Of a stretch of 40,617 bases of DNA, positions 12,347 to 40,470 are shown one piece after another. How positions within the stretch are numbered: the first letter of the stretch is position 1; every line of letters starts with the position of its first letter. Origin of the DNA: Opitutia bacterium (GTDB lineage: Bacteria; Verrucomicrobiota; Verrucomicrobiia; Opitutales; JANYDI01); the NCBI GenBank assembly GCA_025363695.1, contig JANYDI010000148.1:1-40617 (forward strand), written 5' to 3'. The notes beneath the pieces are model-generated. The model made no database searches, was not told where the DNA came from, and worked only from the letters and a program-made list of their open reading frames with translations. The position numbers and the translations under genes are program-made.

Positions 12347-12475
12347 AACTATTGATCTTTTGAAAGGATGGAGCGTACGCATTCATTTTTTTTTAGCAAG
12401 CTTTTTTTTGCTTTTTTGTTCAAAACACAAAAAATACTTCTATTTTCTGGATGATAGATTCATGAAATAAATAAT

Positions 12476-25580: not shown

Positions 25581-26706
25581 ATGCTCAGTTTTGAACTACG
25601 AAAAGATTTTAACACGCTGCTGGAACGCACGGACCACCTGTGGGGGTTCCTTTAAGGTCCCTCAAAAAGAGGCGTCCATAGCCCAAATAGAAGCCGAAAT
25701 GGCCCTGTCTTCTTTTTGGGAAAACAAGGAAGTCGCGCGCCTAAAAAGCGCCCAGCTCAGCCAGCTCAAGCGCGAGCATGGGCAGATTACCGATTTTAAG
25801 CGTCAAGTAGAGGATTTTGCTGTCCTTTGGGAGCTGGCCAATGACGAAGCCTCCCTCGACAGCGCAACGCTTTTGGAAGTCGAAAAAACGCTCAAAACCC
25901 TCCTGCAGCGCCTGGCCAGCCTTGAAGTTTTGGCCTTTCTGAGCGGCCCGCAGGACTCCCATAACGCCATTCTCTCTATTCATGCGGGCGCCGGAGGCAC
26001 GGAATCCTGCGATTGGGCTCAAATGCTGCTGCGCATGTACACCCGCTGGGCTGAACGCGAGGGCTATACTGTCGAAGTCCAAGACCTACAAGCGGGCGAA
26101 GAAGCCGGCATCCAAACGGCCTGCTTGCGCATCATCGGTCCCCACGCCTACGGCCATGCCAAGGCCGAACGGGGCGTCCATCGCCTCGTGCGTATCAGCC
26201 CCTTTGACTCCAATAGCCGCAGGCATACGTCCTTTTGCGCCGTCGACGTCATTGCCGAAGTCGAAGACGATGCCCCCATAGAAATTCTCGATAAAGATTT
26301 AAGGATAGATACCTACCGAGCCGGCGGCGCAGGCGGCCAGCACGTCAATAAAACCGACTCAGCCGTGCGCATCACCCACCTCCCTACCAACATCGTAGTG
26401 GCCTGTCAAAATGAGCGCTCCCAGCACAAAAACAAGGCCGCAGCCATGAAGGTCCTCAAATCTAAGCTGTATGAGAAAGTCATGGACGAAAAACGCTCTC
26501 AAATGGAACAATTCTATAGCGAAAAAGGCGAAATCGGCTGGGGCTATCAGATCCGCAGCTACGTCTTCCAACCCTATCAAATGGTCAAGGACCTTCGCAC
26601 CGGCACCGAAAGCTCCAACCTCCAAACCATCATGGATGGCGACATTAACCCCTTCATCCACAGCTGGTTGCGTAACGGTTGTCCAAGAAAGCGCTTAGAA
26701 AGTTAA
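25581..26706 (+). CDS. prfB: Peptide chain release factor 2, expressed by programmed +1 frameshift (25581-25652 joined to 25654-26706)
   Basis: Frame 0 reads MLSFELRKDFNTLLERTDHLWGFL then TAA at 25653-25655. Skipping T25653 continues as KVPQKEASIAQIEAEM... into the long ORF, which has SPF (VRISPFD) and GGQ (AGGAGGQHVNKT). The track's N-terminal extension from 25531 is not believed. Confidence 0.93.
25641..25656 (+). promoter_or_regulatory. RF2 autoregulatory +1 frameshift site
   Basis: TGGGGG-TTC-CTT-TAA-G: an SD-like GGGGG lies 3 nt before the slippery CTT, followed by an in-frame stop. This is the same architecture as E. coli AGGGGG-UAU-CUU-UGA-C, but with UAA as the stop. Confidence 0.85.
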
Positions 26707-26710
26707 GGCC

Positions 26711-27036
26711 AAGGGGCGCTTGCGCCCCTTGGATCCCCTACCGATAGGCGATTTTTAAAAATGCGATGCATTTTATAAAAATCGCCTATCGGGAAGGGTG
26801 ATACAAGGCCTCTCCAGATCCCTTCGGGATCGAATCTAAGTAATTTAACTATTCATTGAAACCGCAAAATGAGAGCCCTACAGGGGCGATTCATTAAATA
26901 AAAAGCGTTCGATCGCAAAGCGATCAGGATGGGCCTTAGTATATGCTTCCCGATGGGCAATTTTCCTAAAATGCGCTTGCGCATTTTAGAAAATTGCCCA
27001 TCGGAAAGGGGATCCTAAGGGGAGCAAGCTCCCCTT
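26711..27036. repeat. Composite palindromic intergenic element E1 (A-B-C / centre / C'-B'-A')
   Basis: A 26711-26730 AAGGGGCGC-TT-GCGCCCCTT, then GGATCCCC. B 26741-26792 CCGATAGGCGATTTTT..AAAATGC-GAT-GCATTTT..AAAAATCGCCTATCGG. C 26817-26831 GATCCCTTCGGGATC. C' 26911-26925 GATCGCAAAGCGATC. B' 26950-27004. A' 27017-27036 AAGGGGAGC-AA-GCTCCCCTT. Lies between convergent prfB and the TPR gene. Confidence 0.9.
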
Positions 27037-27040
27037 AGCC

Positions 27041-27385
27041 CTAACTCATCAGCGATTGAAATTCGGGGGTCCCGTGGAGCGGTTTAAGGTCTGAGTCCTT
27101 GCGCATCCACTGAAAATCGGAATAGCCCAAAGACACAGCCAGAGTCAGAGCGCCCAGAGCCCCTTTTTTATCACCGGACAAAGAAAGGCTGCAAGCGAGG
27201 TTATAAAAAGCGGTAGGACACTTGGGTTTAAGGGTGACCAAATGACGGTCCAGCGCAAGGCCTTCTGCTATGCGGCCTGCTTGAGTATAGCGCTGGGCCA
27301 GGGCTTCCAGGGCCTCGATGTAGTCGGGATACCGACGCACAATGCCCTCTAGGAGCCCAATTTCAAAACTGTACTGCGCAGCCAT
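27041..27385 (-). CDS. Small TPR-repeat protein (114 aa), function unknown
   Basis: Helical repeat pattern typical of TPR (...YIEALEALAQRYTQAGRIAEGLALDRHLVTLKPKCPTAFYNLACSLSLSGDKKGAL...). No closer assignment is possible by eye. Confidence 0.7.
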   Translation of the reverse strand: MAAQYSFEIGLLEGIVRRYPDYIEALEALAQRYTQAGRIAEGLALDRHLVTLKPKCPTAFYNLACSLSLSGDKKGALGALTLAVSLGYSDFQWMRKDSDLKPLHGTPEFQSLMS

Positions 27386-27452
27386 GGTGACGATTTTTTC
27401 ACTTTTTCCTTGGTAACGGGGTCTATATTCACTTAATCTATGGACGCTTATT

Positions 27453-29660
27453 TTGTCAATGCCATTAAATTACCATGCAGAAATACTTACGTTATCCGGG
27501 CCCGATAAGGCGCTGCACTACAGCATTCCCGAAAAGCTCCTAGTAAAAAAAGGGTCTCTGGTTTGGGTGCCCTTGCAAGGACGCAAGACGCTGGGCCTCG
27601 TGCTGGCCTGCAAAACAGAAGGCCTGCCCTATGCGCTTAAGCCGATTTTGGCCCTCGTTTATGAAGCTCCCGTTCTGACCGAAGACCTCATTGAGCTGCT
27701 GCTGTGGATGCGTAGTTATTATGCCGTTACGGCTGAGGGCCTGCTGCAAACCTTTTTGCCCGCGGTTGTGCGCAAAGGCTTTGCGATGCAAACCGAAACC
27801 ACTTTTGCTTTATTGGCCAGCCCTGCAGACTTTGAGGGCTTTGAACGCCGGGCCCCCAAGCAGGTAGCTTTATGCCGTTTATTACAGGAAAAAGGTCCTT
27901 TGGGCCAAAAAATACTTATTAACAAAAATGGTATTTCCCTTGAATCCCTCCGAGGCGCTGCTCAAAAGGGCTGGATAAGCTCTGAAAAAAACCGCCTCGA
28001 ACGCCGTTTGCAACCTGCTAGCCTCGAAGCCCCTGCGGCGCCTTGCACGCTCAACGACGAACAAGCTCAGGCGCTCGCGTTGATAGAAAGCCACTTAGGT
28101 CATTTTAAACCCATTTTACTCGACGGCATCACGGGCTCAGGCAAGACGGAAGTGTATCTAAGGGCGATGGCTCTTGTCCTGAAACAAGGAGGACAGGTGC
28201 TGTACTTAGTCCCCGAGCTTTCCCTAACGCCCCAAATTTATGGCCGCTTGCATAACCGTTTTGCAGACGCTGCCTTAGCGCTCTGGCATCACCAACTCTC
28301 GGACGGCGAACGCCTCGACACCCATCAGGCGATTGCCCGAGGCGCCGTCAACATCGTGCTGGGCGCCCGCTCGGCCGTGTTTGTTCCTTTGCCCAAACTA
28401 CAGCTGATCATTGTAGACGAAGAGCACGAGCCCAGCTACAAACAGGAGGACAACCCGCGCTACCACGGCCGAGATGTTGCCATATATCGGTCAAAATGCC
28501 TGAACATTCCCTGTATTTTGGGCTCTGCTACGCCTAGCACGGAATCCTTTTTAAATGCTCAGCAAGGCCGTTACGCCCACGCCATTCTTTCCAAGCGCGC
28601 CAAGGCCGAGAGCCTCCCCAAGCTCCACATGGTCGATATGCGCCTAGAAATGAGCAAAACCGGCCTGCCCAGCGGCCCCCTTTCGCGCCTATTGCTCGAT
28701 AAACTCCAAGAACGCCTCGACAGCGGCCAACAAAGCCTACTGTTTATCAACCGTCGCGGTTACAGCCGCAGCTGCCTATGCCCCGCTTGTGGATTTAAGG
28801 CGCTATGTCCCGCTTGTTCCTTAGCGCTGACCTATCATCGCCATGACGAACGCTTGCGTTGCCATTTATGCCAGTACGCGATCGCTGCTTTTCAACGCTG
28901 CCCACAATGCCAATCCCCCAAAATCGCCTGGAAAGGCCTAGGCACCCAGCGCCTCGAAGCCATCCTGCAACGTTGCTTCCCCAAGGCCCGCGTGGTTCGC
29001 GTTGATGCCGATACCATGCAGGGAAAGGAGAGTATCGTTAAATGCCTATCAGCCCTAGCCCAAGGCCACATCGACATCCTGGTAGGCACGCAAATCCTGG
29101 CCAAAGGGCTGGACTTCCCCAAAGTGACGCTCGTGGGGCTCATCGATGCTGATATGGCCTTCAACATGCCGGACTTCCGAGCCCAAGAGCGCGGGTTCCA
29201 GCTCCTCATGCAGGTTTCCGGCCGTTCGGGTCGTGGAGACACCCCGGGTGAAGTTGTCATCCAGAGCTTCGACCCTCAAAACGCTCTCTTTACCTGGGCC
29301 AAGCAAGGCGACACCCACGGCTTCCTACACGCTGAACTCGCCCAACGCAAGGAATTGGGCTACCCACCCTATCGCCGGCTCATCCGGCACCTCTTTTTGG
29401 GCCCCGATCTAGAAGCCCTCATCACCTGGACGCAAACCTGGGCTAGCCTCCTCAAAAAGCATCCGCTGCCTGCCTGTGAAATCCTCGGGCCCGCTCCAGC
29501 AGCGCTCGAAAAATGCAAACACCTCTATCGGTACCACTTCTGGTACTTCACCCCAAGCATCTCCGCCCTCCTGCCCGCACTCCTAGCCCTACGCAGTCAG
29601 CACCCAAGCCCCAAGACCATCGAAGACCGCCTGGATGTGGACCCCGTGCAGGTAATGTAA
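27453..29660 (+). CDS. priA: Primosomal protein N' (PriA helicase)
   Basis: Walker A GITGSGKTEVY; DEEH box IIVDEEHEPSYKQ; Cys-rich zinc region CPACGFKALCPACSLALTYH..LRCHLCQY...CPQCQS. Start is TTG 27453 or ATG 27459. Confidence 0.93.
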   Translation: MSMPLNYHAEILTLSGPDKALHYSIPEKLLVKKGSLVWVPLQGRKTLGLVLACKTEGLPYALKPILALVYEAPVLTEDLIELLLWMRSYYAVTAEGLLQTFLPAVVRKGFAMQTETTFALLASPADFEGFERRAPKQVALCRLLQEKGPLGQKILINKNGISLESLRGAAQKGWISSEKNRLERRLQPASLEAPAAPCTLNDEQAQALALIESHLGHFKPILLDGITGSGKTEVYLRAMALVLKQGGQVLYLVPELSLTPQIYGRLHNRFADAALALWHHQLSDGERLDTHQAIARGAVNIVLGARSAVFVPLPKLQLIIVDEEHEPSYKQEDNPRYHGRDVAIYRSKCLNIPCILGSATPSTESFLNAQQGRYAHAILSKRAKAESLPKLHMVDMRLEMSKTGLPSGPLSRLLLDKLQERLDSGQQSLLFINRRGYSRSCLCPACGFKALCPACSLALTYHRHDERLRCHLCQYAIAAFQRCPQCQSPKIAWKGLGTQRLEAILQRCFPKARVVRVDADTMQGKESIVKCLSALAQGHIDILVGTQILAKGLDFPKVTLVGLIDADMAFNMPDFRAQERGFQLLMQVSGRSGRGDTPGEVVIQSFDPQNALFTWAKQGDTHGFLHAELAQRKELGYPPYRRLIRHLFLGPDLEALITWTQTWASLLKKHPLPACEILGPAPAALEKCKHLYRYHFWYFTPSISALLPALLALRSQHPSPKTIEDRLDVDPVQVM

Positions 29661-29664
29661 GACT

Positions 29665-30168
29665 AAGGGGCGCTTGCGCCCCTTAGGATCCCCTACAGGT
29701 AGCGATTTTATAAAATGCGATGCATTTTAATAAAATCGCTACCTGGAAGGGCATACTAAGGCCTCCCAGATCCCTTCGGGATCGAAAATACTATTAACAA
29801 CAGTCCACACTTAAGGAGGCCTGAAAGACCGGCAGATGATAGCCCAGGGCGTAAGCCCTGGGTTTACGGCAAGAAATAAATTGGAGCCCTGTAAGGGCGG
29901 CACTCAGAACGTGAATGGGAGTGTCGCCCCTGTAGGGCTCAAAAATTTTTCTACCATGACCCAGGGCTCACGCCCTGGGCTATCATCTGCCGGCCCTTCA
30001 GGCCTCCTTAAGTGTGGTTTAATGAATGACTCATATGCTTATACTCGATCGCTTCGCGATCTGTGGGGCTCCTTGTATAGCCTATCCCGATAGCGATTTT
30101 CCTAAAATGCGCTAGCATTTTAGAAAATCGCTATCGGACAGGGGATCCAAGGGGCGCGAGCGCCCCTT
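29665..30168. repeat. Composite palindromic element E2 carrying a nested inner palindrome
   Basis: A 29665-29684; B 29696-29745; C 29769-29783; inner inverted-repeat unit 29805-30017; C' 30047-30061; B' 30087-30137; A' 30149-30168 (AAGGGGCGCG-A-GCGCCCCTT). Lies between convergent priA and rpmA. Confidence 0.9.
29805..30017. repeat. Inner palindromic unit nested in the centre of E2
   Basis: Arms CCACACTTAAGGAGGCCTGAAAGACCGGCAGATGATAG (29805-) and CTATCATCTGCCGGCCCTTCAGGCCTCCTTAAGTGTGG (-30017). Sub-hairpins CCCAGGGC-GTAA-GCCCTGGG (29843-29862) and CCCAGGGC-TCAC-GCCCTGGG (29960-29979). Central hairpin 29884-29905 / 29919-29940. Confidence 0.85.
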
Positions 30169-30223
30169 GGCCCTTTCCCTTCCATGACGCCGTCCCAACC
30201 CCGAACGCCACCCTAAACCACCC

Positions 30224-30472
30224 CTAAACTACTACCGTGACCATGCGCCTGCCCCTTCTGACTCCAAACGCCACCACGCCGTCCTCCAGCGCAAAAAGCG
30301 TGTGGTCGCGGCCTATCCCAACGTTGGTGCTGGGATGAAAACGCGTACCGCGCTGGCGTACAATGATGTTGCCGGCACGCACCACTTGCCCGCCAAATTT
30401 CTTAACACCCAAATACTTTGGGTTACTGTCCCGACCATTGCGGGAGGTTCCTTGTCCTTTTTTAGTTGCCAT
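30224..30472 (-). CDS. rpmA: 50S ribosomal protein L27
   Basis: [56 protein letters not shown]. Confidence 0.96.
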
Positions 30473-30569
30473 GATAGGTAATAAATAAAATAAATGCTCT
30501 ACTCCAGACTTTTTTTCTCAAACTGTAGATTTTTGGAGCCCGTATTGCTGGAGATACCAAACGCGGCCG

Positions 30570-30697
30570 GCGTAGGCGCGTTTTTAAGAGCCTAGTTCTA
30601 GGCGCCTCGGAGCGCAAGACCCTGAGCGTATCCTATATACGTGATGGGTCTGAGCACCGCGGCAACAACGAAATAGGCCGTAAAAACGCGCCTACGC
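30570..30697 (-). repeat. Long hairpin in the rplU-rpmA spacer, closed by a 17-bp perfect stem that contains the rplU stop codon
   Basis: GCGTAGGCGCGTTTTTA (30570-30586) is the exact reverse complement of TAAAAACGCGCCTACGC (30681-30697). The 94 nt between them contain sub-hairpins GCCTAG-TT-CTAGGC (30590-30603) and AGACCC...GGGTCT (30618-30651). The arm sequence resembles B-module arms (CGATAGGCGATTTTTA). Confidence 0.8.
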
Positions 30698-31006
30698 AAC
30701 AATGGATTCGACCTGGATGACGGAAAGCTCCTGCCTATGCCCCTTGCGGCGCTTATAGCCCTTACGGCGCTTTTTCTTGAAGACGACAATCTTTTCGCCG
30801 CGCTTGTGCTCTAAAATCTTTACGGTTACTTGAGCTCCGGGAACGTAGGGCGTACCGATCCTAAACTGACCTTCTTGACTGACGCCAATGACGTCATTTA
30901 TTATTACATTACTACCGCTTTCGTAGTCGCTATAGCGATTAACAAAGAGGATGTCGCCCTCCTCAACGGTAAACTGCCTTCCTTGCATTTTGATGATGGC
31001 TTTCAT
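30692..31006 (-). CDS. rplU: 50S ribosomal protein L21
   Basis: MKAIIKMQGRQFTVEEGDILFVNR...VKILEHKRGEKIVVFKKKRRKGYKRRKGHRQ. Confidence 0.95.
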   Translation of the reverse strand: MKAIIKMQGRQFTVEEGDILFVNRYSDYESGSNVIINDVIGVSQEGQFRIGTPYVPGAQVTVKILEHKRGEKIVVFKKKRRKGYKRRKGHRQELSVIQVESIVA

Positions 31007-31101
31007 AAAGAGAGAGGATGCAAATAGCTTTCAGCATTTTTAGCAAGCTTTTTCTCTTTTTTTATCGTCTTAAACGTAATTTTCTCTTTATTTTAGACAT
31101 C

Positions 31102-31734
31102 ATGTCACGCCTTCCCTTCTATTTTCCTGAGTTTACCCCAGCTCAATTAGAGCGTTTTTCAGCTTGGGCCAGCTTGCTCAAGCACTGGAACACGCAGCTT
31201 AACCTCATCTCCCGCAAGGACATAGACAACCTAGAAGCCCAGCACCTGCTTCCCTGCTTGGGTTATTTAAAGCTTAAATGCATTGAGCCTTCGATGACGC
31301 TCCTAGACCTTGGGACCGGCGGCGGCCTCCCGGGAATCCCCTTGGCCATCGCCCTTCCGGAGGTCCATTTTATCCTGGTAGACAGTGTGGCCAAAAAAAC
31401 ACGGGCCCTTGAGGCCATCTGTAAGGACCTCAAGCTCGACAACGTAAGCGTTATTTGCAGCCGCGCTGAAGACCTCAAAGCCCAAGCTGACTTCGTCATC
31501 GGCCGGGCCGTGGCCCCCTTTGAAAAACTCATTCCCTGGAGCCGCCCCCTGTTGCGTAAAAAATCCGCACAAGGCCGCTTGGCTCCAGGCCTTCTTTATA
31601 TGAAGGGGACCCATTACGCCCAAGAACTCGCGGGCCTTGACATCCAGGCCTGGCAGGCCTGGCCTCTAGAAAGCCTCCTAAGCGGCGTTACAGGAGCCAT
31701 CGACAAATATATTATCTATGTTTCCTTGACTTAA
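31102..31734 (+). CDS. rsmG: 16S rRNA (guanine527-N7)-methyltransferase RsmG (GidB)
   Basis: ...WNTQLNLISRKDIDNLEAQHLLPCL...LLDLGTGGGLPGIPLAI...VDSVAKKTRAL. ATG at 31102 preferred; the track's 28 extra codons are low-complexity spacer. Confidence 0.88.
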   Translation: MSRLPFYFPEFTPAQLERFSAWASLLKHWNTQLNLISRKDIDNLEAQHLLPCLGYLKLKCIEPSMTLLDLGTGGGLPGIPLAIALPEVHFILVDSVAKKTRALEAICKDLKLDNVSVICSRAEDLKAQADFVIGRAVAPFEKLIPWSRPLLRKKSAQGRLAPGLLYMKGTHYAQELAGLDIQAWQAWPLESLLSGVTGAIDKYIIYVSLT

Positions 31735-31766
31735 TAAGCACATTGTGACACTTCTTTTGGTAAAAT

Positions 31767-32747
31767 ATGAAAGCTAAAATCATTTTCCTGGGTTCTGACC
31801 CCATTGCCCTACCCCTCCTGGACGCCCTCGCCCAAAGCCCTGCCCAGCTCCTAGGTGTTTTTACCCAGCCGGACAGACCCCATGGGCGTGGGCAAAAATG
31901 CAGCCCTGGAGAGATTAAAACCTGGGCCATGGGCAGAAATCTGCCCATTTTTCAGCCAGAAAAAAAACCTGGCAAAGACGAAATTGCCTGGATTTACAAA
32001 AATCAAATCGACCTAGCCATCGTCCTGGCCTACGGACACCTCCTCACGCAGGCATTTTTGGATGCCCCCCGACACGGCGTGATCAACGTACACGCCTCCC
32101 TGCTCCCCGCTTACCGAGGCCCATCACCCATCGAAACAGCCGTAGCTATGGGAGAAAACCAAACAGGGCTATCCCTCATGCGCCTAGTCCTCAAGATGGA
32201 CGCCGGCCCCGTCATGGCTCAAACAACCCTCCCCATTCACCCCGAAGATACGTCTGCGCAGGTCCGTCAACGCATGGCCGTGGCCGCTCCGCAGCTGGTC
32301 CTTGAGGCGCTAAGGCCCATTTTGAGCAATAATGCCGTTTTTATCGAACAAGACCACGCCCAAGCCACCTATTGCCGCATGCTAACCCGTGCCGATGGCG
32401 CCATCGACTGGAACCTATCCGCCCAGACCCTCGATGCCCGTATCCGCGGATTCACCCCATGGCCAGGCGCCTATACCTATACCTCAGAAGGCCTTATGCT
32501 CAAAATCGGTAGCGCCCAAGACCTCGAAGCCCCCTGCAATGCCGCCCCAGGAACCCTCCTAGCTGCCAGCGATACAGGCCTTTACGTGGCCACAGCCCAG
32601 GGAACCCTCTGCCTAAAAAACCTTCAACGCCCAGGCGCCAAAATGCTCCCCGCTGGCCTCTTTCTAAGAGGGTTTCCCATGCGCATAGGTAGCGTTTTCG
32701 GAGGAAGTCATCTGGCCGAACAAGCACCCCTGAGTGTTAAAGGGTAA
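31767..32747 (+). CDS. fmt: Methionyl-tRNA formyltransferase
   Basis: MKAKIIFLGSDPIALPLL..., ...INVHASLLPAYRGPSPIE.A..., 326 aa. Confidence 0.93.
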   Translation: MKAKIIFLGSDPIALPLLDALAQSPAQLLGVFTQPDRPHGRGQKCSPGEIKTWAMGRNLPIFQPEKKPGKDEIAWIYKNQIDLAIVLAYGHLLTQAFLDAPRHGVINVHASLLPAYRGPSPIETAVAMGENQTGLSLMRLVLKMDAGPVMAQTTLPIHPEDTSAQVRQRMAVAAPQLVLEALRPILSNNAVFIEQDHAQATYCRMLTRADGAIDWNLSAQTLDARIRGFTPWPGAYTYTSEGLMLKIGSAQDLEAPCNAAPGTLLAASDTGLYVATAQGTLCLKNLQRPGAKMLPAGLFLRGFPMRIGSVFGGSHLAEQAPLSVKG

Positions 32748-32774
32748 AGGGCCAAGAGTAAAAGGTAAAAGGCC

Positions 32775-33107
32775 AAGGGGCGCTTGCGCCCCTTAGGATC
32801 CCCTTTCCGATAGCGATTTTCTAAAATGCGCAAGCGCATTTTGGGAAAATCGCTATCGGGAAGAAAATACTAAGACCTCCCCGGATTCCTTCGGAATCGA
32901 GGTAACCTAAGAAATATAACTATTTATTTGAACCACAAAATGAGAGCCCCCTGACATGTGGTTTTAATAATTCAAAAAATACTCCCGGATCGCTTCGCGA
33001 TCTGTGGGGGCCTTAGTATATTCTACCAGGTAGCGATTTTATTAAAATGCATCGCATTTTATAAAATCGCTACCTGTAGGGGATCCTAAGGGGCATAAAT
33101 GCCCCTT
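32775..33107. repeat. Composite palindromic element E3
   Basis: A 32775-32794; B 32807-32859; C 32884-32898 GATTCCTTCGGAATC; centre with AACCACA...TGTGGTT (32931-32963); C' 32988-33002; B' 33027-33076; A' 33088-33107 AAGGGGCAT-AA-ATGCCCCTT. Confidence 0.9.
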
Positions 33108-33140
33108 GGCCCTTTCACTGAAATACTTTTCCTCGGGCCT

Positions 33141-33189
33141 AAAAAAAATAAACCCGAGAACCCATGTTGTGAACCACGGACTCTCGGGC
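33141..33189 (-). terminator. Intrinsic-terminator-like hairpin plus T-run (minus strand)
   Basis: Minus strand reads GCCCGAGAGTCCGTGG..loop..CATGGGTTCTCGGG followed by TTTATTTTTTTT. The G-T pairs in the stem are wobbles only in the minus-strand RNA (they are A-C mismatches on the plus strand). It lies 230 nt downstream of the kinase stop. Confidence 0.5.
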
Positions 33190-33271
33190 ATAACGTGAAC
33201 CTAACTGGGCGCCGTATGAACCTTATAAAACAGACTCTACAGCTCCGCAAGGGCGATTCCCGACTTGATAC
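33153..33271 (+). repeat. Family-2 repeat, copy 1 (hairpin ... AGCTCCGCAAGGGCGATTCCCGACTTGATAC)
   Basis: Matches the reverse complement of 40164-40282. Both copies have the CCCGAGAAC...TCTCGGG hairpin, a 45-50-nt spacer, then AGCTCCG(C/T)AAGGGCGATTC(C/T)CGACTTGATAC. Confidence 0.8.
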
Positions 33272-33419
33272 CTAATTCAATTTACTAAAACCTACCCCAC
33301 CACGAAAACATAAATTTCCTTAAAAAGCAAGCTTTTTTTAAAAATAGTTAAAAATAAGGTTCAAATTTTAAATGAATTTATTATTAAATTTAAAAATATT
33401 ATAATATATCTTTGAAACT

Positions 33420-34355
33420 TCAGCCTGAAACCTTCCCAGCCAAACTACTGATATACTGGGCAAACTTTTCATTCGTAGGGCCATAGTGATCATGATACAA
33501 ATAATCTTCCAGGACGCTCAAAAACTCATAAGCCGTGGCGTAGCGCCTGGATCGTGGACGTTCTAAAACTTTTTGGAGGATTTTTTCTAGCGGGGCATCG
33601 ATGTCGAGGCGCAGAGCTGAAAACTCCGGCAAAGGCAGCTGCAAAATATGGTTGCGCGTCAGCTCACCGCTTTGGGCCTCAAAGCAATTATGGCCCAAAA
33701 GCAACTCTGCAAGGATGATGCCGCATGAAAACAGGTCTGCACGGCCATCGGTGACTTCCTTGCGCGCCTGCTCGGGCGACAGGTACGCATCGTGGCCAGC
33801 AATGACCTCGCCCTCCTTATTATACATGAGGTCCAGGGCCTTGGCGATGCCAAAATCCGTCAGCTTAACATCGCCTTCTAAGGAAATCAGGATGTTTCGC
33901 GGCGTCACATCTCGGTGTACAATCCCCAGACTGCGACCGCAAGGGTCCATTTTACTATGCGCATAGGCAAGCCCTCGGCACACACGCGAAACGATAAATA
34001 CAGCCCATTCGACCGGAACCGGGCGTCCACGCATGCGATGCAGCTCCAAAAATTCCTCCAAATTCATCCCCTGAACATACTCCATGGCCATGAAATACCG
34101 CTCCTGAACAATGCCCAGATGGTAGATTTGCACAATATTGGTATGAATCAGATCCGCAACCAAAAGCGCCTCACCCACAAAATTATCCCTAAACAGCTTA
34201 ATGGCCGAAAACTCTTCTCGAATCAGCTTGATAGCCACGGTTTTTGAAAACCCTTCAGCCCCCAGCTGCTGCGCCTCGTACACAATGCCCATGCCTCCAC
34301 TGGCAATCTCACGCAGCAAACGGTAATTAAAAGCACTGTGAAGCATACTGAGCAT
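33420..34355 (-). CDS. Hanks-type Ser/Thr protein kinase, catalytic domain only (311 aa)
   Basis: Gly-loop [16 protein letters not shown] lysine, catalytic loop [15 protein letters not shown] (LTDFGIAKA), APE-like SPEQ. No TM or sensor domain. Confidence 0.88.
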
Positions 34356-34362
34356 AAATGAG

Positions 34363-34391
34363 AGTTTATCATATATGGAATGTTAAATCAA
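34363..34391 (-). promoter_or_regulatory. Candidate sigma70-type promoter of the kinase gene (possibly leaderless mRNA)
   Basis: Minus strand TTGATT (34391-34386) - 17 nt - TAAACT (34368-34363), then 7 nt to the ATG at 34355. No purine-rich SD in between. Confidence 0.35.
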
Positions 34392-34430
34392 TAGGAAAGT
34401 TCTCGTGTTGGAAGTGGAAAGGAAAGGGCC

Positions 34431-34689
34431 AAGGGGCACAGGTGCCCCTTAGGATCCCCTTTCCGATAGCGATTTTGTGAAATACTGCGTATTTCAGCAA
34501 AATCGCTATCGGGAAGCCTATACTAAGGCCTCCACAGATCCCTTCGGGATCGAAATTAATGTACTCCCGGATCGCTTCGCGATCTGTGGGGGGCTTAGGT
34601 TCTTCTACTAGGTAGCGATTTATTATAAATACGTAGTATTTTAATAAATCGCTACCTGTAGGGGATCCTAAGGGGCGCAAGCGCCCCTT
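34431..34689. repeat. Composite palindromic element E4 (compact form, almost no centre)
   Basis: A 34431-34450 AAGGGGCAC-AG-GTGCCCCTT; B 34463-34512; C 34537-34551; C' 34570-34584; B' 34610-34657; A' 34670-34689. The track ORF 34369..34680 is just this repeat read through. Confidence 0.9.
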
Positions 34690-34695
34690 AGCCCT

Positions 34696-36084
34696 TTATC
34701 CTTGGACAGCAAGCACTGTGAAGCCACTCGGCCCATCCTTAACCTTCCAGCCGGCCGCCAGGAGCTGCTGACGCAGGCTATCGGCGCTGGCAAAATCGCC
34801 TTTAAGCTTGGCCTCCCAGCGAGCCTGAGCAAGGGCCTGGATTTCCGCGGGAACGACGACAGACTCAGCCTTTGGGAACCTTAACCCTAGCGCATAAAAA
34901 ACGGTTTTCAAACCAGCAAGAACGCCCGAAGCTTGAGCATCCAGTGTATTGAGGGTTGAAAAAAGGGCCCCCAAGGCCTTGGGTGTATTGAGGTCCTCGC
35001 ACAAAGCTTCATGGACCGCCTCAAAAGGACCCCATGGGGCGCTGGGTTCATGGCCCGTTGGGCCCGTTTGGGCTAACTGCTGATAACTGTGAACATGGCC
35101 TTCAAGGCGTTTAAGCGCTCCTTGAGCAGCCTGCAGCGCCTCGAAGGTAAAATTCAAAGGCTGGCGATAATGCCCCGAAATCAAGGCGTAACGGACCGCA
35201 TCGGGCGTATAGCCCTTGGCTTGTAGGTCCTCAAGCGTGTACTTATTGCCCAGGCTTTTACTCATTTTTTGACCATCCACCTGCAAATGCGCGCTGTGGA
35301 ACCATTTTTGGGCACAGGGCTGGCCGGTGGCGCCTTCGCTTTGGGCAATTTCATTTTCGTGGTGAGGAAAGCATAAATCAATACCTCCGGCATGCAGGTC
35401 CATATTGGTACCTAAGTACTTCATGCTCATCGCACTACACTCAATATGCCAACCCGGGCGCCCGCGTCCCCAGGGGCTTTCCCAAAAAACAGCCCCGTCT
35501 TCTGCCTTGTAGGCCTTCCATAAGGCAAAATCAGCGATACAGTCACGGTCATACTCATCTGCAAGGTTCGGCGCTTGATCGCTGTTTTCAGCCTGAGTCT
35601 GCAAGGCGCTACGATTCAGCCGACTCAGCTTTCCATAGCTCAAAAAAGCCTTTACTCGAAAATAGATCGATCCATCTCCGCCGACATAGGCCTTCCCGCG
35701 CTCCAAAAGCTGCGCAATCAGGGCGATCATTTCCGGAATATGCTCCGTTGCCTTAGGCTCTACATGCGGTGGCAAGAGGCCCAAAGCTTGGCAATCGGCC
35801 TCAAAACTTTGAGTCCATTTTTGGGTAAAGGCTGATAAAGACTGCTGGCTCTCCTGAGCTCCGCGAATCGTTTTATCATCCACATCCGTAATATTACGGA
35901 CATGCAAAGGCTCTAAGCCCTCTAGCTCCATCAAGCGCCTCAGGACATCCTGCAATAAAAAAGTCCTAAAATTCCCAATATGCGCCGGCCCATACACCGT
36001 CGGCCCACAGCAATAAAAACGTAGGCGCCCCTCCGGCCTCAAGGGCTCCACCGCCCGCGTAGCCGTGTTGTATAGCGTAATCAT
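34696..36084 (-). CDS. cysS: Cysteine--tRNA ligase
   Basis: MITLYNTATR..., HIGH variant (PAHIGNFR), KMSKS present. ATG at 36084 preferred over the TTG at 36099. Confidence 0.94.
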   Translation of the reverse strand: MITLYNTATRAVEPLRPEGRLRFYCCGPTVYGPAHIGNFRTFLLQDVLRRLMELEGLEPLHVRNITDVDDKTIRGAQESQQSLSAFTQKWTQSFEADCQALGLLPPHVEPKATEHIPEMIALIAQLLERGKAYVGGDGSIYFRVKAFLSYGKLSRLNRSALQTQAENSDQAPNLADEYDRDCIADFALWKAYKAEDGAVFWESPWGRGRPGWHIECSAMSMKYLGTNMDLHAGGIDLCFPHHENEIAQSEGATGQPCAQKWFHSAHLQVDGQKMSKSLGNKYTLEDLQAKGYTPDAVRYALISGHYRQPLNFTFEALQAAQGALKRLEGHVHSYQQLAQTGPTGHEPSAPWGPFEAVHEALCEDLNTPKALGALFSTLNTLDAQASGVLAGLKTVFYALGLRFPKAESVVVPAEIQALAQARWEAKLKGDFASADSLRQQLLAAGWKVKDGPSGFTVLAVQG

Positions 36085-36090
36085 CCCCCC

Positions 36091-36119
36091 ATTGTCCAAA
36101 AACCCACCCCCAAAAGCAA
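36091..36119 (-). promoter_or_regulatory. Candidate promoter of cysS
   Basis: Minus strand AAAAAACGC-TTGCTT (36119-36114) - 17 nt - GACAAT (36096-36091), then GGGGGG and the ATG at 36084. Confidence 0.3.
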
Positions 36120-36135
36120 GCGTTTTTTAAGGGCC

Positions 36136-36431
36136 AAGGGGAGCAGTGATCCCCTTGGATCCCCGAATGGGAGTTTTAGCGGGGCCTTTTGAGCGGGGAC
36201 TGTGTCACCTTCGCGCTCGAGTGCTGTAGCACACGTCGCGCTAGGTTCCTTGTCCGCGCTCAAAATTCCTCCGCTAAAACTCCCATTCCGAGGCAGTTCT
36301 AAAAGCACACCCGGATCGCTTCGCGATCTGTGGGGGGCTTAGTATATCCTTCCAGGTAGCGAATTGTTAAAATGCATGCATTTTAACAATTCGCTACCTG
36401 TAGGGGATCCTAAGGGGCGCAAGCGCCCCTT
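36136..36431. repeat. Composite palindromic element E5 (the left B slot holds a different 124-nt hairpin)
   Basis: A 36136-36156 AAGGGGA-GCAGTGA-TCCCCTT, then GGATCCCC. Long hairpin 36165-36288 with 18-bp outer stem GAATGGGAGTTTTAGCGG / CCGCTAAAACTCCCATTC. C' 36314-36328; B' 36353-36400; A' 36412-36431. Confidence 0.88.
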
Positions 36432-36468
36432 ATCCCCTTGCCCTTTCCTTTACCTTTAACCCCTTCCT

Positions 36469-37719
36469 TTACCGGCATTTTCCCCAACGGGATGAAATGG
36501 GATAGTATATGAAAAACGCGCGACCGACGAGGGCTTTTTCGGGGATGGGGCCAAAGGAGCGGCTATCGCCGCTTTCGTAGGAGTTGTCGCCCATGCCGTA
36601 GTAGTGGTTTTTTGGGATACGCTCCTTAAGGCCCTTGGCGAGGCGTCCGCGCTCGGAATAGCCTCGAAACCCGGGCAATTGCTGGGCATTGGCCTCAAAG
36701 GCGGCATTACCGCTAATCGGAGCTCCGTTGCGATAGAGCACAGGGCTTTTGACCTGCAGTGTGTCTCCAGGTAAGCCGACTAGGCGCTTGATAAAGTACT
36801 CTGCAGGCCTGTCATTGAGCGTTTCCATCGTGTCGGTACGAAAAACAATCGGATCTCCTAAATTGGGTTTTTTAAAGTGGTAACTAAAGCGATCTACGAA
36901 GAGGATATCTCCGGAAAGAATATCGAAATCCATCAAAACAGCATTTTCTTTTGGGTAAATATCCGTGTGTAGGCATACCTCTTGGCTGTTGACATCGTAG
37001 CGGTTGTTGATAATCTGGCTGCGATAAAATTCCTGAAACGAACGCGTGTTTTCTGCAAACAGGGCATCGTGCAGGATCTCATCAAGACTGAAATCTCTAG
37101 GCAAATAAAGATCGATGAGCTTGTCGTTCACGTACAATTGATAGTGACGTTCTATCGACGGCAAAGGCGTAAAACGACGTACCAGCGTGTAGCGCACCAG
37201 GCCTGTGCCTGAGCGTGGGTCATCCGGGCCAAAAACCGGGATTTTAAGCATTCCAGCCCCGGGAGATTTTACGGTATAGCTCTTGCGCCAATTGCGTATG
37301 CGCTGCCACAGGTCTCCGACAAACCCTGGCCTGGGCGCCGCCTCCGTATACACCAAAGACTGCATGCCACTATAGGTTGGATACATTGAGTTGGTCGGGA
37401 TCTGGAAAGGATGCAAAAAGAAAAACCGCACCCCAATAGCCAAGAGCGCCGAAACGATAAAGACCTCCACATTCTCAGCCCAAAACCGTTTTGGAAAAAA
37501 TGTCCCACCCAAAACCGTCAACTGCCCCTCCAAGGCCGTCGTCCTCACCTTCAGCCCCTCTAACGAAGTTTCCTCCAAAGCCCTCTCCAGCCCCTCAACC
37601 CCGCCCGTCAGCTGCTCCACTTGCTCGCCGCTCATAAGGTCCCGCCGGTAGTGGTACACCTTCCGTGCACACGCCAGCACCGCTTCCGCTCTGTTACGCC
37701 ATTGTTTGATTTCTTTCAT
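36469..37719 (-). CDS. lepB: Signal peptidase I
   Basis: IPTNSMYPTY (Ser box), ...IKRLVGLPGDTL..., GDNSYESGDSRSFGPIP; 416 aa with a long N-terminal region. Confidence 0.92.
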   Translation of the reverse strand: MKEIKQWRNRAEAVLACARKVYHYRRDLMSGEQVEQLTGGVEGLERALEETSLEGLKVRTTALEGQLTVLGGTFFPKRFWAENVEVFIVSALLAIGVRFFFLHPFQIPTNSMYPTYSGMQSLVYTEAAPRPGFVGDLWQRIRNWRKSYTVKSPGAGMLKIPVFGPDDPRSGTGLVRYTLVRRFTPLPSIERHYQLYVNDKLIDLYLPRDFSLDEILHDALFAENTRSFQEFYRSQIINNRYDVNSQEVCLHTDIYPKENAVLMDFDILSGDILFVDRFSYHFKKPNLGDPIVFRTDTMETLNDRPAEYFIKRLVGLPGDTLQVKSPVLYRNGAPISGNAAFEANAQQLPGFRGYSERGRLAKGLKERIPKNHYYGMGDNSYESGDSRSFGPIPEKALVGRAFFIYYPISSRWGKCR

Positions 37720-37740
37720 AAGGATTGGATTGGATTGATT

Positions 37741-37959
37741 TTTGGGGGCGCTTGCGCCCCCAAACCCCCCATTGGAAGGCGATTTCCTTAAATGCTGCGC
37801 ACTTTTAAAAATCGCCTTCCAAGGAGCTTAGGTGTTCGATCCCGAAGGGATCTAGAGGGTGCCTTGTATCGCCCTATCCCGATGGCGATTTTCCTAAAAT
37901 GCGCAGCATTTTAGAAAATCGCTATCGGAAAGGGGATCCAAGGGGAGCTGGCTCCCCTT
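37741..37959. repeat. Composite palindromic element E6, in the lepA-lepB spacer
   Basis: A variant 37741-37764 TTTGGGGGCGC-TT-GCGCCCCCAAA; B 37772-37822 TTGGAAGGCGATTT...AAATCGCCTTCCAA; C 37838-37852 GATCCCGAAGGGATC; B' 37879-37928; A' 37940-37959 AAGGGGAGC-TG-GCTCCCCTT. Confidence 0.88.
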
Positions 37960-37970
37960 GGCCCTTTAAA

Positions 37971-39764
37971 TCATTGGTTCTTGAGAATCTGTACAAACGT
38001 CTCTTGCGGGATGTCTACTTTGCCGACGCGTTTCATACGTTTTTTGCCTTCTTTTTGTTTATCGAGGAGCTTGCGTTTTCGGCTGATGTCGCCGCCGTAG
38101 CACTTCGCGGTGACGTCTTTTCGGAAGGCATTGATGGTCTCGCGGGCGACGATCTTGCCGCCTACAGCCGCTTGGATAGCGATCTTGAACATTTGGCGAG
38201 GGAGGATTTGGCCTAGGCGTTCGCATAGGGAGCGTCCGCGGCTTTCGGCCTTGGATGCGTGCACGATGGAGGCAAAGGCGTCTACGGGCTCGGTGTTTAC
38301 GAGGATTTCCAGCTTGGTGAGCTTGGAGGGGATGTATTCGCCCAAGCAATAGTCCATGGAGCCGTAACCCTTGGTGATGCTTTTGAGGCGATCATGAAAG
38401 TCGACCAGAATTTCATTCAGCGGCAAGGTGCACGAGAGGATAACCCGTTGCGTATCAATGCTTTCGGTGCTTTCGTAGATGCCGCGTTTTTCCGAAATAA
38501 GGGTCATGAGCTCTCCAATACAAATATTGGGGATGATGATGGTGGCCTTGACGGTGGGCTCGTACATGGCTTTGATGATGGTAGGATCCGGCAGTTTTAG
38601 CGGGTTGTCGATCATGAGCGTTTTGCCAGCTTCGGTCTCGATACGGTACACCACGCTGGGATAGGTCGATATAATGTCCAAATCATACTCGCGCCGCAAG
38701 CGTTCCTGGACAATATCCATGTGCAAAAGCCCTAAAAACCCGCAACGAAAGCCAAAGCCCAGCGCGGTTGAGGATTCCGACTGATAGGTAAAAGCGGCAT
38801 CGTTGAGCCTGAGCTTGGCCACGCTGGCCTTGAGCTTTTCGTAGTCCGTGCTATCAATGGGGTAAATACCACTAAACACCATGGGCTGGATTTCCTTATA
38901 CCCAGGGAGCATTTCTTGGGCCGGATGCTCTAAATGCGTCAAGGTATCGCCGATTTTGATTTGCGATACTTCCCGTAAATTAGTAACAATGTAGCCTACT
39001 TGCCCAGAGCCCAAGGTGGCCTCTTGCCGCATTTGAGGCGAAAATACGCCGACTTCCTTCACCTGGGCCACCTGACCATCGCTCATCATCATGAGCATGT
39101 CATTTGCCCTTACCAAGCCCGAAAACACCCGCACATAGCAAATCACGCCACGATAGGCATCGTAAGCGCAATCAAAGATCAGCATGCGTGTTTGTGGGTA
39201 GTCGCCCCAACGCGGCCCTGGGAGGCGATGTGCCACGGCTTCCAAAATTTCTGAAATACCCAGGCGCGCCTTTCCGCTGGCCAACAGGGCATCATGGGCC
39301 GGAATGGCCAAGATGTCCTCGATCTCACGACGGCGTTTTTCCGGCTCGGCTCCGGGTAAATCAATTTTGTTGATGACCGGAATGACCGTAAGGCCTTGAT
39401 TGATCGCTAAATGGGCGTTGGCTACCGTCTGTGCCTCAATGCCTTGGGCGGCGTCCACCAGCAACAAGGCTCCCTCGCAAGCCGCCAAACTGCGGGATAC
39501 CTCATACGCAAAATCTACGTGTCCAGGCGTATCAATGAGGTTATACAACCAAGGCTCCGTGCTTCCCTTGGGCTGATAAAGCATCGATACGGGGTGACAC
39601 TTGATCGTTATACCGCGCTCACGCTCCAGGTCCATCGCATCCAGCAGGCACTCCTTCATCGCCCGCTTGTCGACCGTAGACGTTGCCTCCAGCAGGCAGT
39701 CCGACAAGGTCGTTTTCCCGTGGTCCACGTGTGCGATAATGCAAAAATTCCGAATCTCTCTCAT
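37971..39764 (-). CDS. lepA: Elongation factor 4 (LepA)
   Basis: IRNFCIIAHVDHGKTTLSD, DTPGHVDF, NKID motifs; 597 aa; lepA-lepB adjacency. Confidence 0.96.
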   Translation of the reverse strand: MREIRNFCIIAHVDHGKTTLSDCLLEATSTVDKRAMKECLLDAMDLERERGITIKCHPVSMLYQPKGSTEPWLYNLIDTPGHVDFAYEVSRSLAACEGALLLVDAAQGIEAQTVANAHLAINQGLTVIPVINKIDLPGAEPEKRRREIEDILAIPAHDALLASGKARLGISEILEAVAHRLPGPRWGDYPQTRMLIFDCAYDAYRGVICYVRVFSGLVRANDMLMMMSDGQVAQVKEVGVFSPQMRQEATLGSGQVGYIVTNLREVSQIKIGDTLTHLEHPAQEMLPGYKEIQPMVFSGIYPIDSTDYEKLKASVAKLRLNDAAFTYQSESSTALGFGFRCGFLGLLHMDIVQERLRREYDLDIISTYPSVVYRIETEAGKTLMIDNPLKLPDPTIIKAMYEPTVKATIIIPNICIGELMTLISEKRGIYESTESIDTQRVILSCTLPLNEILVDFHDRLKSITKGYGSMDYCLGEYIPSKLTKLEILVNTEPVDAFASIVHASKAESRGRSLCERLGQILPRQMFKIAIQAAVGGKIVARETINAFRKDVTAKCYGGDISRKRKLLDKQKEGKKRMKRVGKVDIPQETFVQILKNQ

Positions 39765-39776
39765 GCTTGTGTCGAT

Positions 39777-39805
39777 AGGTTAGGCAGCGTTGGCCGCAAA
39801 AGCAA
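39777..39805 (-). promoter_or_regulatory. Candidate promoter of lepA
   Basis: Minus strand AAAAAAACTTTCGC-TTGCTT (39805-39800) - 17 nt - TAACCT (39782-39777), then 12 nt to the ATG at 39764. Confidence 0.3.
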
Positions 39806-39818
39806 GCGAAAGTTTTTT

Positions 39819-39902
39819 TAGGGGGCGCTTGCGCCCCCTAAAACCCCCATTCCGATAGCGATTTATTAAAATGCTAACGCATTTTAGATAAATCGCTATC
39901 GG
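39819..39902. repeat. Half element E7 (A-B only)
   Basis: A variant 39819-39840 TAGGGGGCGC-TT-GCGCCCCCTA; B 39852-39902 CCGATAGCGATTTATTAAAATGC-TAAC-GCATTTTAGATAAATCGCTATCGG. Confidence 0.85.
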
Positions 39903-39987
39903 GAATGGTGTTCTAGGATCAATGATGTATTGTGATATTTATTTGATTTTATGATAAATTTTAGGAATTTCGAGGACAATTTTCATG

Positions 39988-40049
39988 AAAAAGCCCTGCT
40001 CCCTACGCCAAGGCTCCGGAGAGCCAAGAGTTTTAGTGAGCAGGGCTTT
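39988..40049 (-). terminator. Hairpin plus T5, terminator-like on the minus strand
   Basis: Minus strand AAAGCCCTGCTC (40049-40038) ... GAGCAGGGCTTTTT (40001-39988). This is a 12-bp stem whose 36-nt loop holds the inner hairpin GGCTC-CGGA-GAGCC (40012-40025). Confidence 0.4.
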
Positions 40050-40163
40050 AAGCGTGAAGTATTCTCAATAGATCTTTTTAAGTTTTAAGCGTGTAAGGGC
40101 GATTCTCTTGTTGATTTATGCTTGTAGGCTTAGGCTTTTGTGGATGGAATTGGTTATTAAAGT

Positions 40164-40282
40164 ATCAAGTCGAGAATCGCCCTTACGGAGCTCTAAAGTT
40201 TTATTTAGTCTAACCTATCTTTGTGTAAAGACAGGGGGTCAGGACGCCCGAGAACACGTATTCACGATCTGAGTTCTCGGGC
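40164..40282 (-). repeat. Family-2 repeat, copy 2 (inverted relative to copy 1)
   Basis: Plus strand ATCAAGTCGAGAATCGCCCTTACGGAGCT ... GCCCGAGAAC (40246-40255) ... GTTCTCGGGC (40273-40282). This is the reverse complement of the pattern at 33153-33271. Confidence 0.8.
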
Positions 40283-40470
40283 TGAATTCGCTTCTTAAGC
40301 CGGTGAGAAAGGATTGTGGTAAGTTCCATGGTATCAAATCCGGGCATTATTTCGAGTAAAAGAACTTGGTCGTTTTGGGTTTTCATGATGATTTTTTTGG
40401 AGAAAAGGAGGGCCCTTGGAGGGGGAATTTTTTTACCGCTGGCCAGCCGTGTTTTGTCCCTGTCCCCACA

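Follow-up and report, generated by a model that had tools for sequence, protein, structure and literature searches.

Gene content of the window

The DNA considered here (the window) is a 40.6-kb contig (JANYDI010000148.1, 40,617 nt) from an uncultured, Opitutales-like member of the Verrucomicrobiota, in the right part of which almost every spacer behind the 3' end of a gene has been colonised by one family of nested palindromic elements, E1 to E7. The best named matches of its LepA protein, at ~70% identity, are from the Opitutales and Puniceicoccaceae. The left 26.7 kb comprises minus-strand operons of ribosomal proteins, rpoBC, fusA, tuf and nusG; the right part contains prfB, a TPR gene, priA, rpmA, rplU, rsmG, fmt, a Ser/Thr kinase gene, cysS, lepB and lepA. 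The gene names given in a preliminary description made from the sequence alone (prfB, TPR, priA, rpmA, fmt, kinase, cysS, lepB, lepA) agree with Pfam, or for lepA with homology. All 20 sizeable open reading frames (ORFs) in the Pfam scan, out of 58 of at least 100 aa, are housekeeping genes, as is lepA, and none encodes a transposase, as had been stated. The remaining coding-strand ORFs, which were outside the Pfam scan, fit the usual ribosomal-protein operon order. Exact-protein look-ups with translated cysS, lepA, P0001 and P0121 gave no match.

All seven of the elements first proposed are present, a direct and inverted repeat search and a profile hidden Markov model (HMM) of their half-unit being in agreement. 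Their boundaries required correction, most true ends lying 2-14 nt further out, at conserved TAAAGGGCC termini, and the right end of E7 lying at 39920 rather than 39902 (18 nt). The repeat search yielded direct families D1-D10 and inverted pairs I1-I25, all within the element spacers, and the HMM 13 half-unit matches (E 1e-37 to 7e-4), all within 26704-39920, with none in window 1-26700. The sequence CCCCTTNGGATCCCC occurs seven times in the window (0.00 expected) and the hairpin termed C nine times (0.12 expected). The window contains 44 hairpins with stems of 9 bp or more, compared with 6-15 in shuffles, and 26 of the 44 lie right of 26.7 kb; the fold z-scores of the elements range from -9 to -18.

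Anatomy of the half-unit

The basic unit, as defined by a consensus from the alignment of all halves, is a polar half-unit of ~130 nt. From outside inwards, it consists of a terminus (TAAAGGGCC); hairpin A (CCAAGGGGCG-CTTG-CGCCCCTTGG, 24 nt with a 10-bp stem); a spacer, (A)GGATCCCC; hairpin B, which is bulged and has 50-60 nt and 23-27 pairs; a linker, G..TATACTAAGGCCYCCMCA, also described as the TATACTAAGGCC linker; and the 15-nt hairpin C, either GATCCC-TTC-GGGATC or GATCGC-GAA-GCGATC. Elements E1-E4 are head-to-head pairs of half-units; doublets of the family measure 230-520 bp. E5, in which an unrelated hairpin X stands for the left B-C, E6, with a variant A, a third B type and one C, and E7, a single A-B, depart from this plan.

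The halves had been thought to be mirror images; this is not so. Half-units fall into type I (CCGATAGCG...) and type II (CAGGTAGCG...), and the doublets pair one of each, such that the two halves within an element are 66-71% identical compared with 79-84% for the same subtype across elements. Nor are the loops of the two C hairpins of an element mirrored. The doublets are thus pairs of two different subtypes, as in bacterial interspersed mosaic elements (BIMEs) and many dimers of repetitive extragenic palindromic sequences (REPs), and did not arise by local inverted duplication.

E1 (26704-27043) is a doublet in the convergent prfB/TPR spacer, with A at 26709-26732, B at 26741-26792, C1 at 26817-26831, a polar centre at 26832-26910 that contains a module D (GAGCCCTACAGGGGCGA), C2 at 26911-25, B' at 26947-27006 and A' at 27015-27038. 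E2 (29658-30176), the largest doublet, lies between the 3' ends of priA and rpmA; its A (29663-86), type II B (29696-29745) and C1 (29769-83) are separated by a nested centre from C2 (30047-61), a type I B' (30086-30138) and A' (30147-70). E3 (32768-33118), a doublet 3' of fmt, has A at 32773-96, a type I B at 32805-62, a variant C1 at 32884-98, a polar centre at 32899-32987, C2 at 32988-33002, a type II B' at 33026-75 and A' at 33086-33109. The centres of E1 and E3 are both polar and AT-rich, and are 85% identical over 46 nt (D12). E4 (34423-34700), between the cysS stop and the kinase start, is a minimal doublet with almost no centre and an RNA fold z of -17.9; its modules are A 34429-52, type I B 34461-34515, C1 34537-51, C2 34570-84, type II B' 34606-60 and A' 34668-91.

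E5 (36129-36445) lies between the lepB stop and the cysS start. Its A (36134-58) has a 9-nt loop, and is followed by hairpin X (36165-36288, 124 nt, GAATGGGAGTTTTAGCGG...CCGCTAAAACTCCCATTC, z = -9.7), of which there is no second copy in the window, then by C2 (36314-28), a type II B' with a perfect 24-bp stem (36353-36400) and A' (36411-32). E6 (37739-37970), between the lepA stop and the lepB start, comprises a variant A'' (TTGGGGGCGCTTGCGCCCCCAA / GGGGGCGCTTGCGCCCCC + ACCCCCC; 37741-64), a type III B (37772-37822), the single C (37838-52), a type I B' (37877-37930) and A' (37938-61). E7 (39816-39920, plus strand), the single half-unit upstream of lepA, has an A'' (39816-43), AAAACCCCC, a type I B (39850-39905) and a degenerate linker (HMM E = 5.5e-21, z = -10.1).

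The nested centre of E2 consists of a 213-bp inverted repeat (29805-30017), the arms of which (29805-29863 and 29959-30017; pair I7) are 95% complementary, and its innermost palindrome, at ~29884-29940, is formed by two inverted copies of module D, the module also found in E1. Each arm matches the Rfam family Acido-Lenti-1 (RF01687), with 55 bits at 29817-29862 (minus) and 60.8 bits at 29960-30005 (plus), the gathering score being 37. The arms lie outside the A-B-C consensus, and the other six elements do not have them. These two full-length matches resemble the reported Acido-Lenti-1 RNA (Weinberg et al. 2010, PMC2864571), but differ in being the arms of a nested inverted repeat rather than a free-standing gene for a small RNA (sRNA), an arrangement suggesting that repeat elements can terminate in the Acido-Lenti-1 'sRNA' motif. 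The first Lentisphaera copies listed in the Rfam seed of RF01687 are ~200 nt apart, on one strand.

One further hairpin, proposed as B-like at 30570-30697 in the rplU/rpmA spacer, is real (30563-30700, arms GCGTAGGCGCGTTTTTA...TAAAAACGCGCCTACGC, DNA fold z = -6.4); it has no detectable homology to B.

Compensatory change in three local hairpins

In the alignment of hairpin B, standard pairs make up 90% of cells, and both sides have changed in 12 of the 25 pairs; none of 500 shuffles was as good, and with partner columns slid only 35-48% pair. The arms of B are 92.5% identical within a copy, compared with 77% between copies, and 12 of 14 copies retain a one-base bulge in the inner arm. Paired changes are likewise seen in A (GGGGCGC/GCGCCCC, GGGGCAC/GTGCCCC and GGGGAAC/GTTCCCC) and in C (GATCCC, GATCGC or GATTCC with matching partners). 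By contrast, long-range pairing between the left and right halves is not maintained. Thus, the local hairpins are the constrained units, and all three (A, B and C) are shown to be kept by compensatory change.

Neither the folding energies nor the G-U counts differ between the two strands, which lends no support to a strand-specific RNA. The mirror symmetry is broken, however, by the C loops: C-GAA-G is on the minus strand in 7 of the 9 listed C hairpins, or 8 of 10 if the left variant of E3 (32884-98, a by-eye reading) is counted. In E2 and E4, and in E3 too if the variant is counted, both C hairpins belong to this set. The sequence GCGAAGC, which forms an exceptionally stable DNA mini-hairpin (PMC13037366), is inside four hairpins of the set. 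The plus-strand GC skew is negative throughout the window, whatever the gene orientation, plus-strand genes included, which makes the minus-strand sequence the probable template of the lagging strand. IS200/IS605 and RAYT (REP-associated tyrosine transposase) systems involve folding as single-stranded DNA during replication, and the C-loop bias, which concerns only ~10 hairpins, may fit folding of this kind.

Dispersal and insertion

The preliminary description had allowed that copies might be restricted to this locus. The finding of copies beside unrelated genes on other contigs contradicts this. Contigs L003, L005 and L019 of bin JANXME together have four half-units with 85-98% identity to window copies, next to genes not in the window (hydrolase-like, sigma-54-type regulator and kinase-like). 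These contigs break within elements, and JANXME, which is labelled Actinomycetes, is probably mis-binned. A copy on another NCBI contig, where a spurious 65-aa ORF runs across C-B-A, was the sole match when the spurious 103-aa ORF spanning E4 was used as a protein probe. Logan contig L053, from a different sample (SRR23617308), matches window 30148-32794 (2647 nt) at 100% identity and ends inside hairpin A at both sides, in E2 and E3, from which it follows that the sequence is real and that the repeats break short-read assemblies. Repeats of this type can fragment such assemblies and scatter contigs into wrong bins, as with the related copies in the bin labelled Actinomycetes.

The occurrence of seven copies within 13 kb and none in the first 26.7 kb might suggest that they arose by local duplication or are an artefact of assembly limited to the contig. 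This is exceedingly improbable given the independent assembly, which includes parts of two elements, the copies next to unrelated genes elsewhere, and the fact that the copies differ by 16-40% while sharing subtypes between several elements.

Comparison with relatives points to insertion. In the closest relative (L051, LepA 81% identical) the lepA-lepB spacer is 6 nt, compared with 251 nt with E6 in the window; the window LepA stops at the same residue position as that of L051, and E6 begins 2 nt past the stop codon. There are no comparable palindromes in 15 kb of a relative with a 71% identical LepA. The family is thus dispersed, inserted and lineage-specific, and not a local duplication. Including their conserved termini, the elements cover ~2.1 kb; repeats can thus fill ~16% of a 13-kb housekeeping stretch and split what was once a tight lepA-lepB junction.

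Members of the family are rare in public data. A metagenome scan with the pattern CCCCTTN{0,1}GGATCCCCN{6,9}GCGATTT gave eight matches, all in one gut-bacterial coding sequence, and no family members; a viral contig scan for the hairpin-A motif gave no matches, and neither did blastn of E4 against plasmids or of E2 against phages. A 20-nt exact match, CTTCCATGACGCCGTCCCAA, is shared by window 30179-30198, next to the right end of E2, and L019 4-23; it hints at another common repeat and at close kinship of the window and JANXME genomes.

Placement next to genes and transcription

At least six of the seven elements lie behind the 3' end of a gene, in convergent or co-directional spacers as was originally noted; none lies in the divergent spacers 27385-27453 and 31006-31018, and none in the ribosomal and RNA polymerase operons. 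The distance from stop codon to A stem is 2 nt for prfB and TPR (stop codons 26704-06 and 27041-43 at the two ends of E1), 2 nt for priA (29658-60), 4 nt for cysS (34696-98, facing A' of E4) and 9 nt for lepA, and is 25-53 nt for fmt, lepB and rpmA; the TAA of the consensus terminus often doubles as the stop codon. On the simplest view, spacers were originally very short, comparable with the 6-nt junction of the relative, and only exactly intergenic insertions would have survived. A preference for TA or TAA targets is conceivable.

E7, E6, E5 and E4 lie inside a co-directional lepA-lepB-cysS-kinase run between a perfect sigma-70-type promoter (40498-40471, minus; TTGACA, 16-nt spacer, TG-extended TATAAT) and a strong intrinsic terminator (33189-33152, minus). 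These four elements are therefore almost certainly transcribed, and would lie within one transcript. In E. coli, hairpins or REPs within 15 nt of a stop codon lower translation (PMC12306157). By analogy, the elements are likely to affect flanking expression, and those with hairpins 2-9 nt past stop codons offer a testable case of repeat-driven expression change in essential genes. Such effects look like a consequence of insertion, not its purpose.

Hairpin A itself was considered as an intrinsic terminator and rejected: inbound it is followed by GGAUCCCC with no U-tract, weak outward matches occur at three A hairpins only, and the terminator scan total is at the shuffle level (24 compared with 20.1).

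It may be asked whether the elements are instead RNA elements selected by the host, i.e. terminators, 3'-exonuclease barriers, RNase III sites or termination brakes. Their position behind gene 3' ends, with hairpin A 2-9 nt past five stops (prfB, TPR, priA, cysS and lepA), the co-variation of the stems, the location of E4-E6 in the run with its promoter and terminator, and the documented effect of REPs near stop codons (PMC12306157) would all be accounted for. The lack of strand asymmetry in folding energy or G-U pairs, the missing inbound U-tract and weak outward matches, and the absence of any Rfam match are not what this proposal predicts. Moreover, the nearest relative has no element at its 6-nt lepA-lepB junction, and the occurrence of near-identical sequence at unrelated loci is impossible by in-place evolution. 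Host selection is accordingly a rather improbable origin, and any RNA role is likely a secondary effect, not the cause of the existence of the family.

Comparison with known repeat families

The proposal of a modular, nested palindromic family of the REP/BIME, Correia or miniature inverted-repeat transposable element (MITE) type is supported by the architecture and dispersal of the elements, and its description as unnamed also holds, in that the A-B-C consensus has no Rfam match, whether the gathering threshold is applied or E is relaxed to 1. A match to an already described family, which would have spoken against novelty, was found solely for the nested arms of E2 and not for the A-B-C family itself. 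Weak Rfam matches (miRNA precursors; group-II-D1D4-5, 27 bits with a gathering score of 34.5) were discarded as long hairpins or gapped matches. Literature searches for a description of the family, and for the A-tail sequence CCCCTTGGATCCCC, found none. Repeats in this phylum are no surprise, Opitutus terrae being rich in short GTAG REPs (PMC3733652). Those were the only ones previously described among the Planctomycetes-Verrucomicrobia-Chlamydiae (PVC) bacteria, to which the present elements add a well-resolved mosaic repeat family.

Among the closest parallels are the REP doublets (REPINs) and BIMEs of Enterobacteria and Pseudomonas, which are associated with RAYT. REPs are intergenic, mostly 3' of genes and between convergent or co-directional ORFs, and are GTAG- or CGTC-tagged (PMC3733652). 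The likenesses comprise intergenic palindromes behind convergent or co-directional genes, head-to-head pairing, often of two subtypes, a mosaic of hairpins and conserved linkers, and imperfect stems with a conserved bulge and compensatory change, often a few nt from stops (PMC3733652, PMC12306157). The two alternating, oppositely oriented subtypes with conserved linkers (GGATCCCC, TATACTAAGGCC) are those of a BIME, though in architecture only, with no sequence relationship. By contrast with REPIN/BIMEs, the units here are of 130 nt with three hairpins (24, 50-60 and 15 nt) rather than one of 20-40 nt, doublets reach 520 bp with nested foreign palindromes, and there is no GTAG/CGTC tag, no sequence similarity and no known RAYT. 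Hairpins A and C are within the REP size range (20-40 bp, stem 6-13 bp), whereas hairpin B and the 130-nt unit are not. Terminal GTAG/CGTC is absent, A being flanked by AAAGGGCC and (A)GGATCCCC and C by CCMCA and GA; GTAG occurs only within the type II B stem, paired with CTAC.

The terminal inverted repeats (TIRs) linked to TIRYT tyrosine transposases are long, unrelated to REPs and in some cases doubly palindromic (Di Nocera et al. 2013, PMC3733652). Like the present elements, they form moderately abundant dimers or clusters in phyla outside the Proteobacteria (PMC3733652), but their shared GGGGWSAS motif is unmatched by GGGGCGCT or GGGGAGCT, and there is no TIRYT gene to link here.

Correia/NEMIS elements of Neisseria and the RPE of Rickettsia are MITEs, and the BOX elements of Streptococcus pneumoniae are modular, their parts being interchangeable. 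All are small, non-coding, structured repeats with inverted ends, near genes and co-transcribed, in which they resemble the elements here; the latter differ in having no regular TA duplication, no sequence similarity to them, hairpins within each arm, and arms of different subtypes. An integron attC/cassette array, in which cassette ORFs are followed by imperfect palindromes between RYYYAAC and GTTRRRY core sites, was rejected, since the termini (TAAAGGGCC, GGCCCTTTA) have no GTT core sites and the flanks are essential housekeeping genes.

Taken together, the elements are best read as a new example of selfish bacterial DNA of a known type, and are neither a new kind of system nor a named family. 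What sets them apart is the unit of three hairpins, the depth of nesting and how densely they lie among essential genes.

Possible routes of spread

That the elements constitute a dispersed, selfish family of mosaic repeats is highly probable. More specifically, they are probably non-autonomous, non-coding mosaic palindromes of the REP-doublet/BIME/MITE kind, spread as folded single-stranded DNA by an enzyme acting in trans. In such a scheme, a hairpin-specific enzyme from a gene elsewhere in the genome would recognise the folded elements; the likeliest candidate is an HUH/Y1 enzyme of RAYT or TIRYT type. The doublet centres accept further palindromic modules, and copies would persist only where harmless, i.e. 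in spacers behind gene 3' ends. Once co-transcribed, the stable hairpins 2-9 nt past stops would probably alter mRNA 3'-end stability, processing or termination. A single-strand enzyme of the HUH/Y1 type would fit the conserved bulge, the compensated stems, the subtype pairing, the absence of target duplications and the bias towards GAA loops; the single-strand/Y1 route taken by itself is nonetheless only a tentative suggestion.

Several observations weigh against this interpretation. No transposase lies in the window, and no Y1 transposase in the window or related contigs, such that the mobilising enzyme is purely inferred. There is no GTAG/CGTC tag beside the hairpins, in which they are unlike RAYT-linked REPs (PMC3733652). 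The bias in C-loop orientation is not statistically significant, and intrastrand repair could hold palindromes symmetric without functional selection. The sole empty site is in a relative at 81% protein identity, so exact insertion junctions are unreadable, and whole half-unit copies are 60-84% identical, with no sign of recent movement.

The elements might alternatively be classical cut-and-paste MITEs, in which the ~130-nt half-units serve as long TIRs for a DDE transposase (e.g. IS630/Tc1-like, with a TA target) encoded elsewhere. Long terminal inverted repeats, sizes below ~600 bp and the absence of coding capacity (internal ORFs are short, overlap hairpins and have one database match) are all as in MITEs, and 10 of 14 ends have TA at 0-2 nt beyond the A(A)AGGGCC terminus. 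Also in line with this, L005 1-125 encodes the C-terminal end of an IS1595-like transposase (..FHLFLKECEWRFN.., recognised by eye), though ~1.5 kb from the element and non-adjacent. However, no consistent or fixed-length target-site duplication was seen, and no direct repeat other than TA flanks the copies; E1 alone has TA at both ends, one end of each of E2, E3 and E4 is without it, and four TA dinucleotides simply belong to the stop codons of neighbouring genes. A duplex-binding DDE enzyme leaves the three compensated internal hairpins and the conserved bulge unexplained, and the left and right halves are of different subtypes. No autonomous full-length element with A-B-C ends lies in the window, and no transposase-like family recurs near the hairpin-A motif in the 42 listed loci of other organisms (see below). 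The cut-and-paste route therefore seems unlikely, and spread as folded single-stranded DNA is preferred.

Hairpin A and its tail in distant phyla

Two findings matter beyond the family itself, namely that Acido-Lenti-1 can form the inverted arms of a nested repeat and that hairpin A with its tail is found again across phyla. A scan with the pattern AAGGGG-N8-9-CCCCTT-(N)-GGATCCCC, which has 20 fixed bases, was made in one genome per species with no control pattern. Hairpin A plus tail (CCAAGGGG..CCCCTTGG-ATCCCC) was found at a minimum of 42 loci (L001-L042, e.g. L021 2298-2540, L011 and L041), and the matches listed from outside JANXME lie in multi-copy, multi-hairpin intergenic elements. A deltaproteobacterial lineage (bins JAEUKK and JBJONS) has at least 17 such loci and the Rhodobacteraceae (three named Pararhodobacter species and two further bins) at least 7; other carriers among the matches listed include Candidatus Adiutrix, an Acidocella-like lineage, in which the copy is a nested composite palindrome of ~240 nt, and a Lentisphaeria bin.

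Among the matches listed, CC precedes the motif in 35 of 43, the stem extends inward by 2-4 pairs in nearly all, and the basal stem and tail are constant, with an apical stem and loop that vary from lineage to lineage. An all-vs-all ORF comparison of the 42 loci listed found no recognisable transposase near the motif, and one family of five ORFs that spans four organisms. Rfam gave nothing over the motif at 16 related loci, and a Rhodobacter-type element gave five weak partial matches against plasmids, with nothing annotated beneath them.

It is possible, though we consider it unlikely, that (G)CC-AAGGGG(N)-loop-(N)CCCCTT-GG-ATCCCC(C) defines a cross-phylum superfamily of tagged palindromes recognised by one conserved enzyme or host factor; if so, it would be a further superfamily next to the GTAG- and CGTC-tagged ones of REPs. 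The similarity may instead reflect convergence on very stable G4/C4 stems.

Other features of the window

The ribosomal and RNA polymerase operons (window 1-26000) have a G+C content of 41-48%, except for one 1-kb bin at 50%; in the right part (26000-40000) it is 50-57%, except for one bin at 45%. A second, unrelated repeat of ~170 nt is present at 33120-33310 (minus) and 40085-40310 (plus); the copies are 76% identical, have no Rfam match, and have in common the motif GTATCAAGTCGrGAATCGCCCTTrCGGAGCT and a GCCCGAGA...TCTCGGG hairpin. One copy includes the terminator at 33189-33152, and a long hairpin is formed by 40093-40190 in the other.

Outside some element ends, at 32745-32772 and 36433-36468, are purine-rich TAAAGG-like repeats or partial duplications of the terminus (at the left of E3, TAAAGGGCCAAGAGTAAAAGGTAAAAGGCC). 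A small AT-rich palindrome, AAAAGCAAGC(N)TTTTTT (D14, D16), recurs at 36111-36133, 39800-39822, 33322-33344, 12390-12416 and 31037-31063, and at ~1755-1775 of L003, often on the gene-start side of elements.

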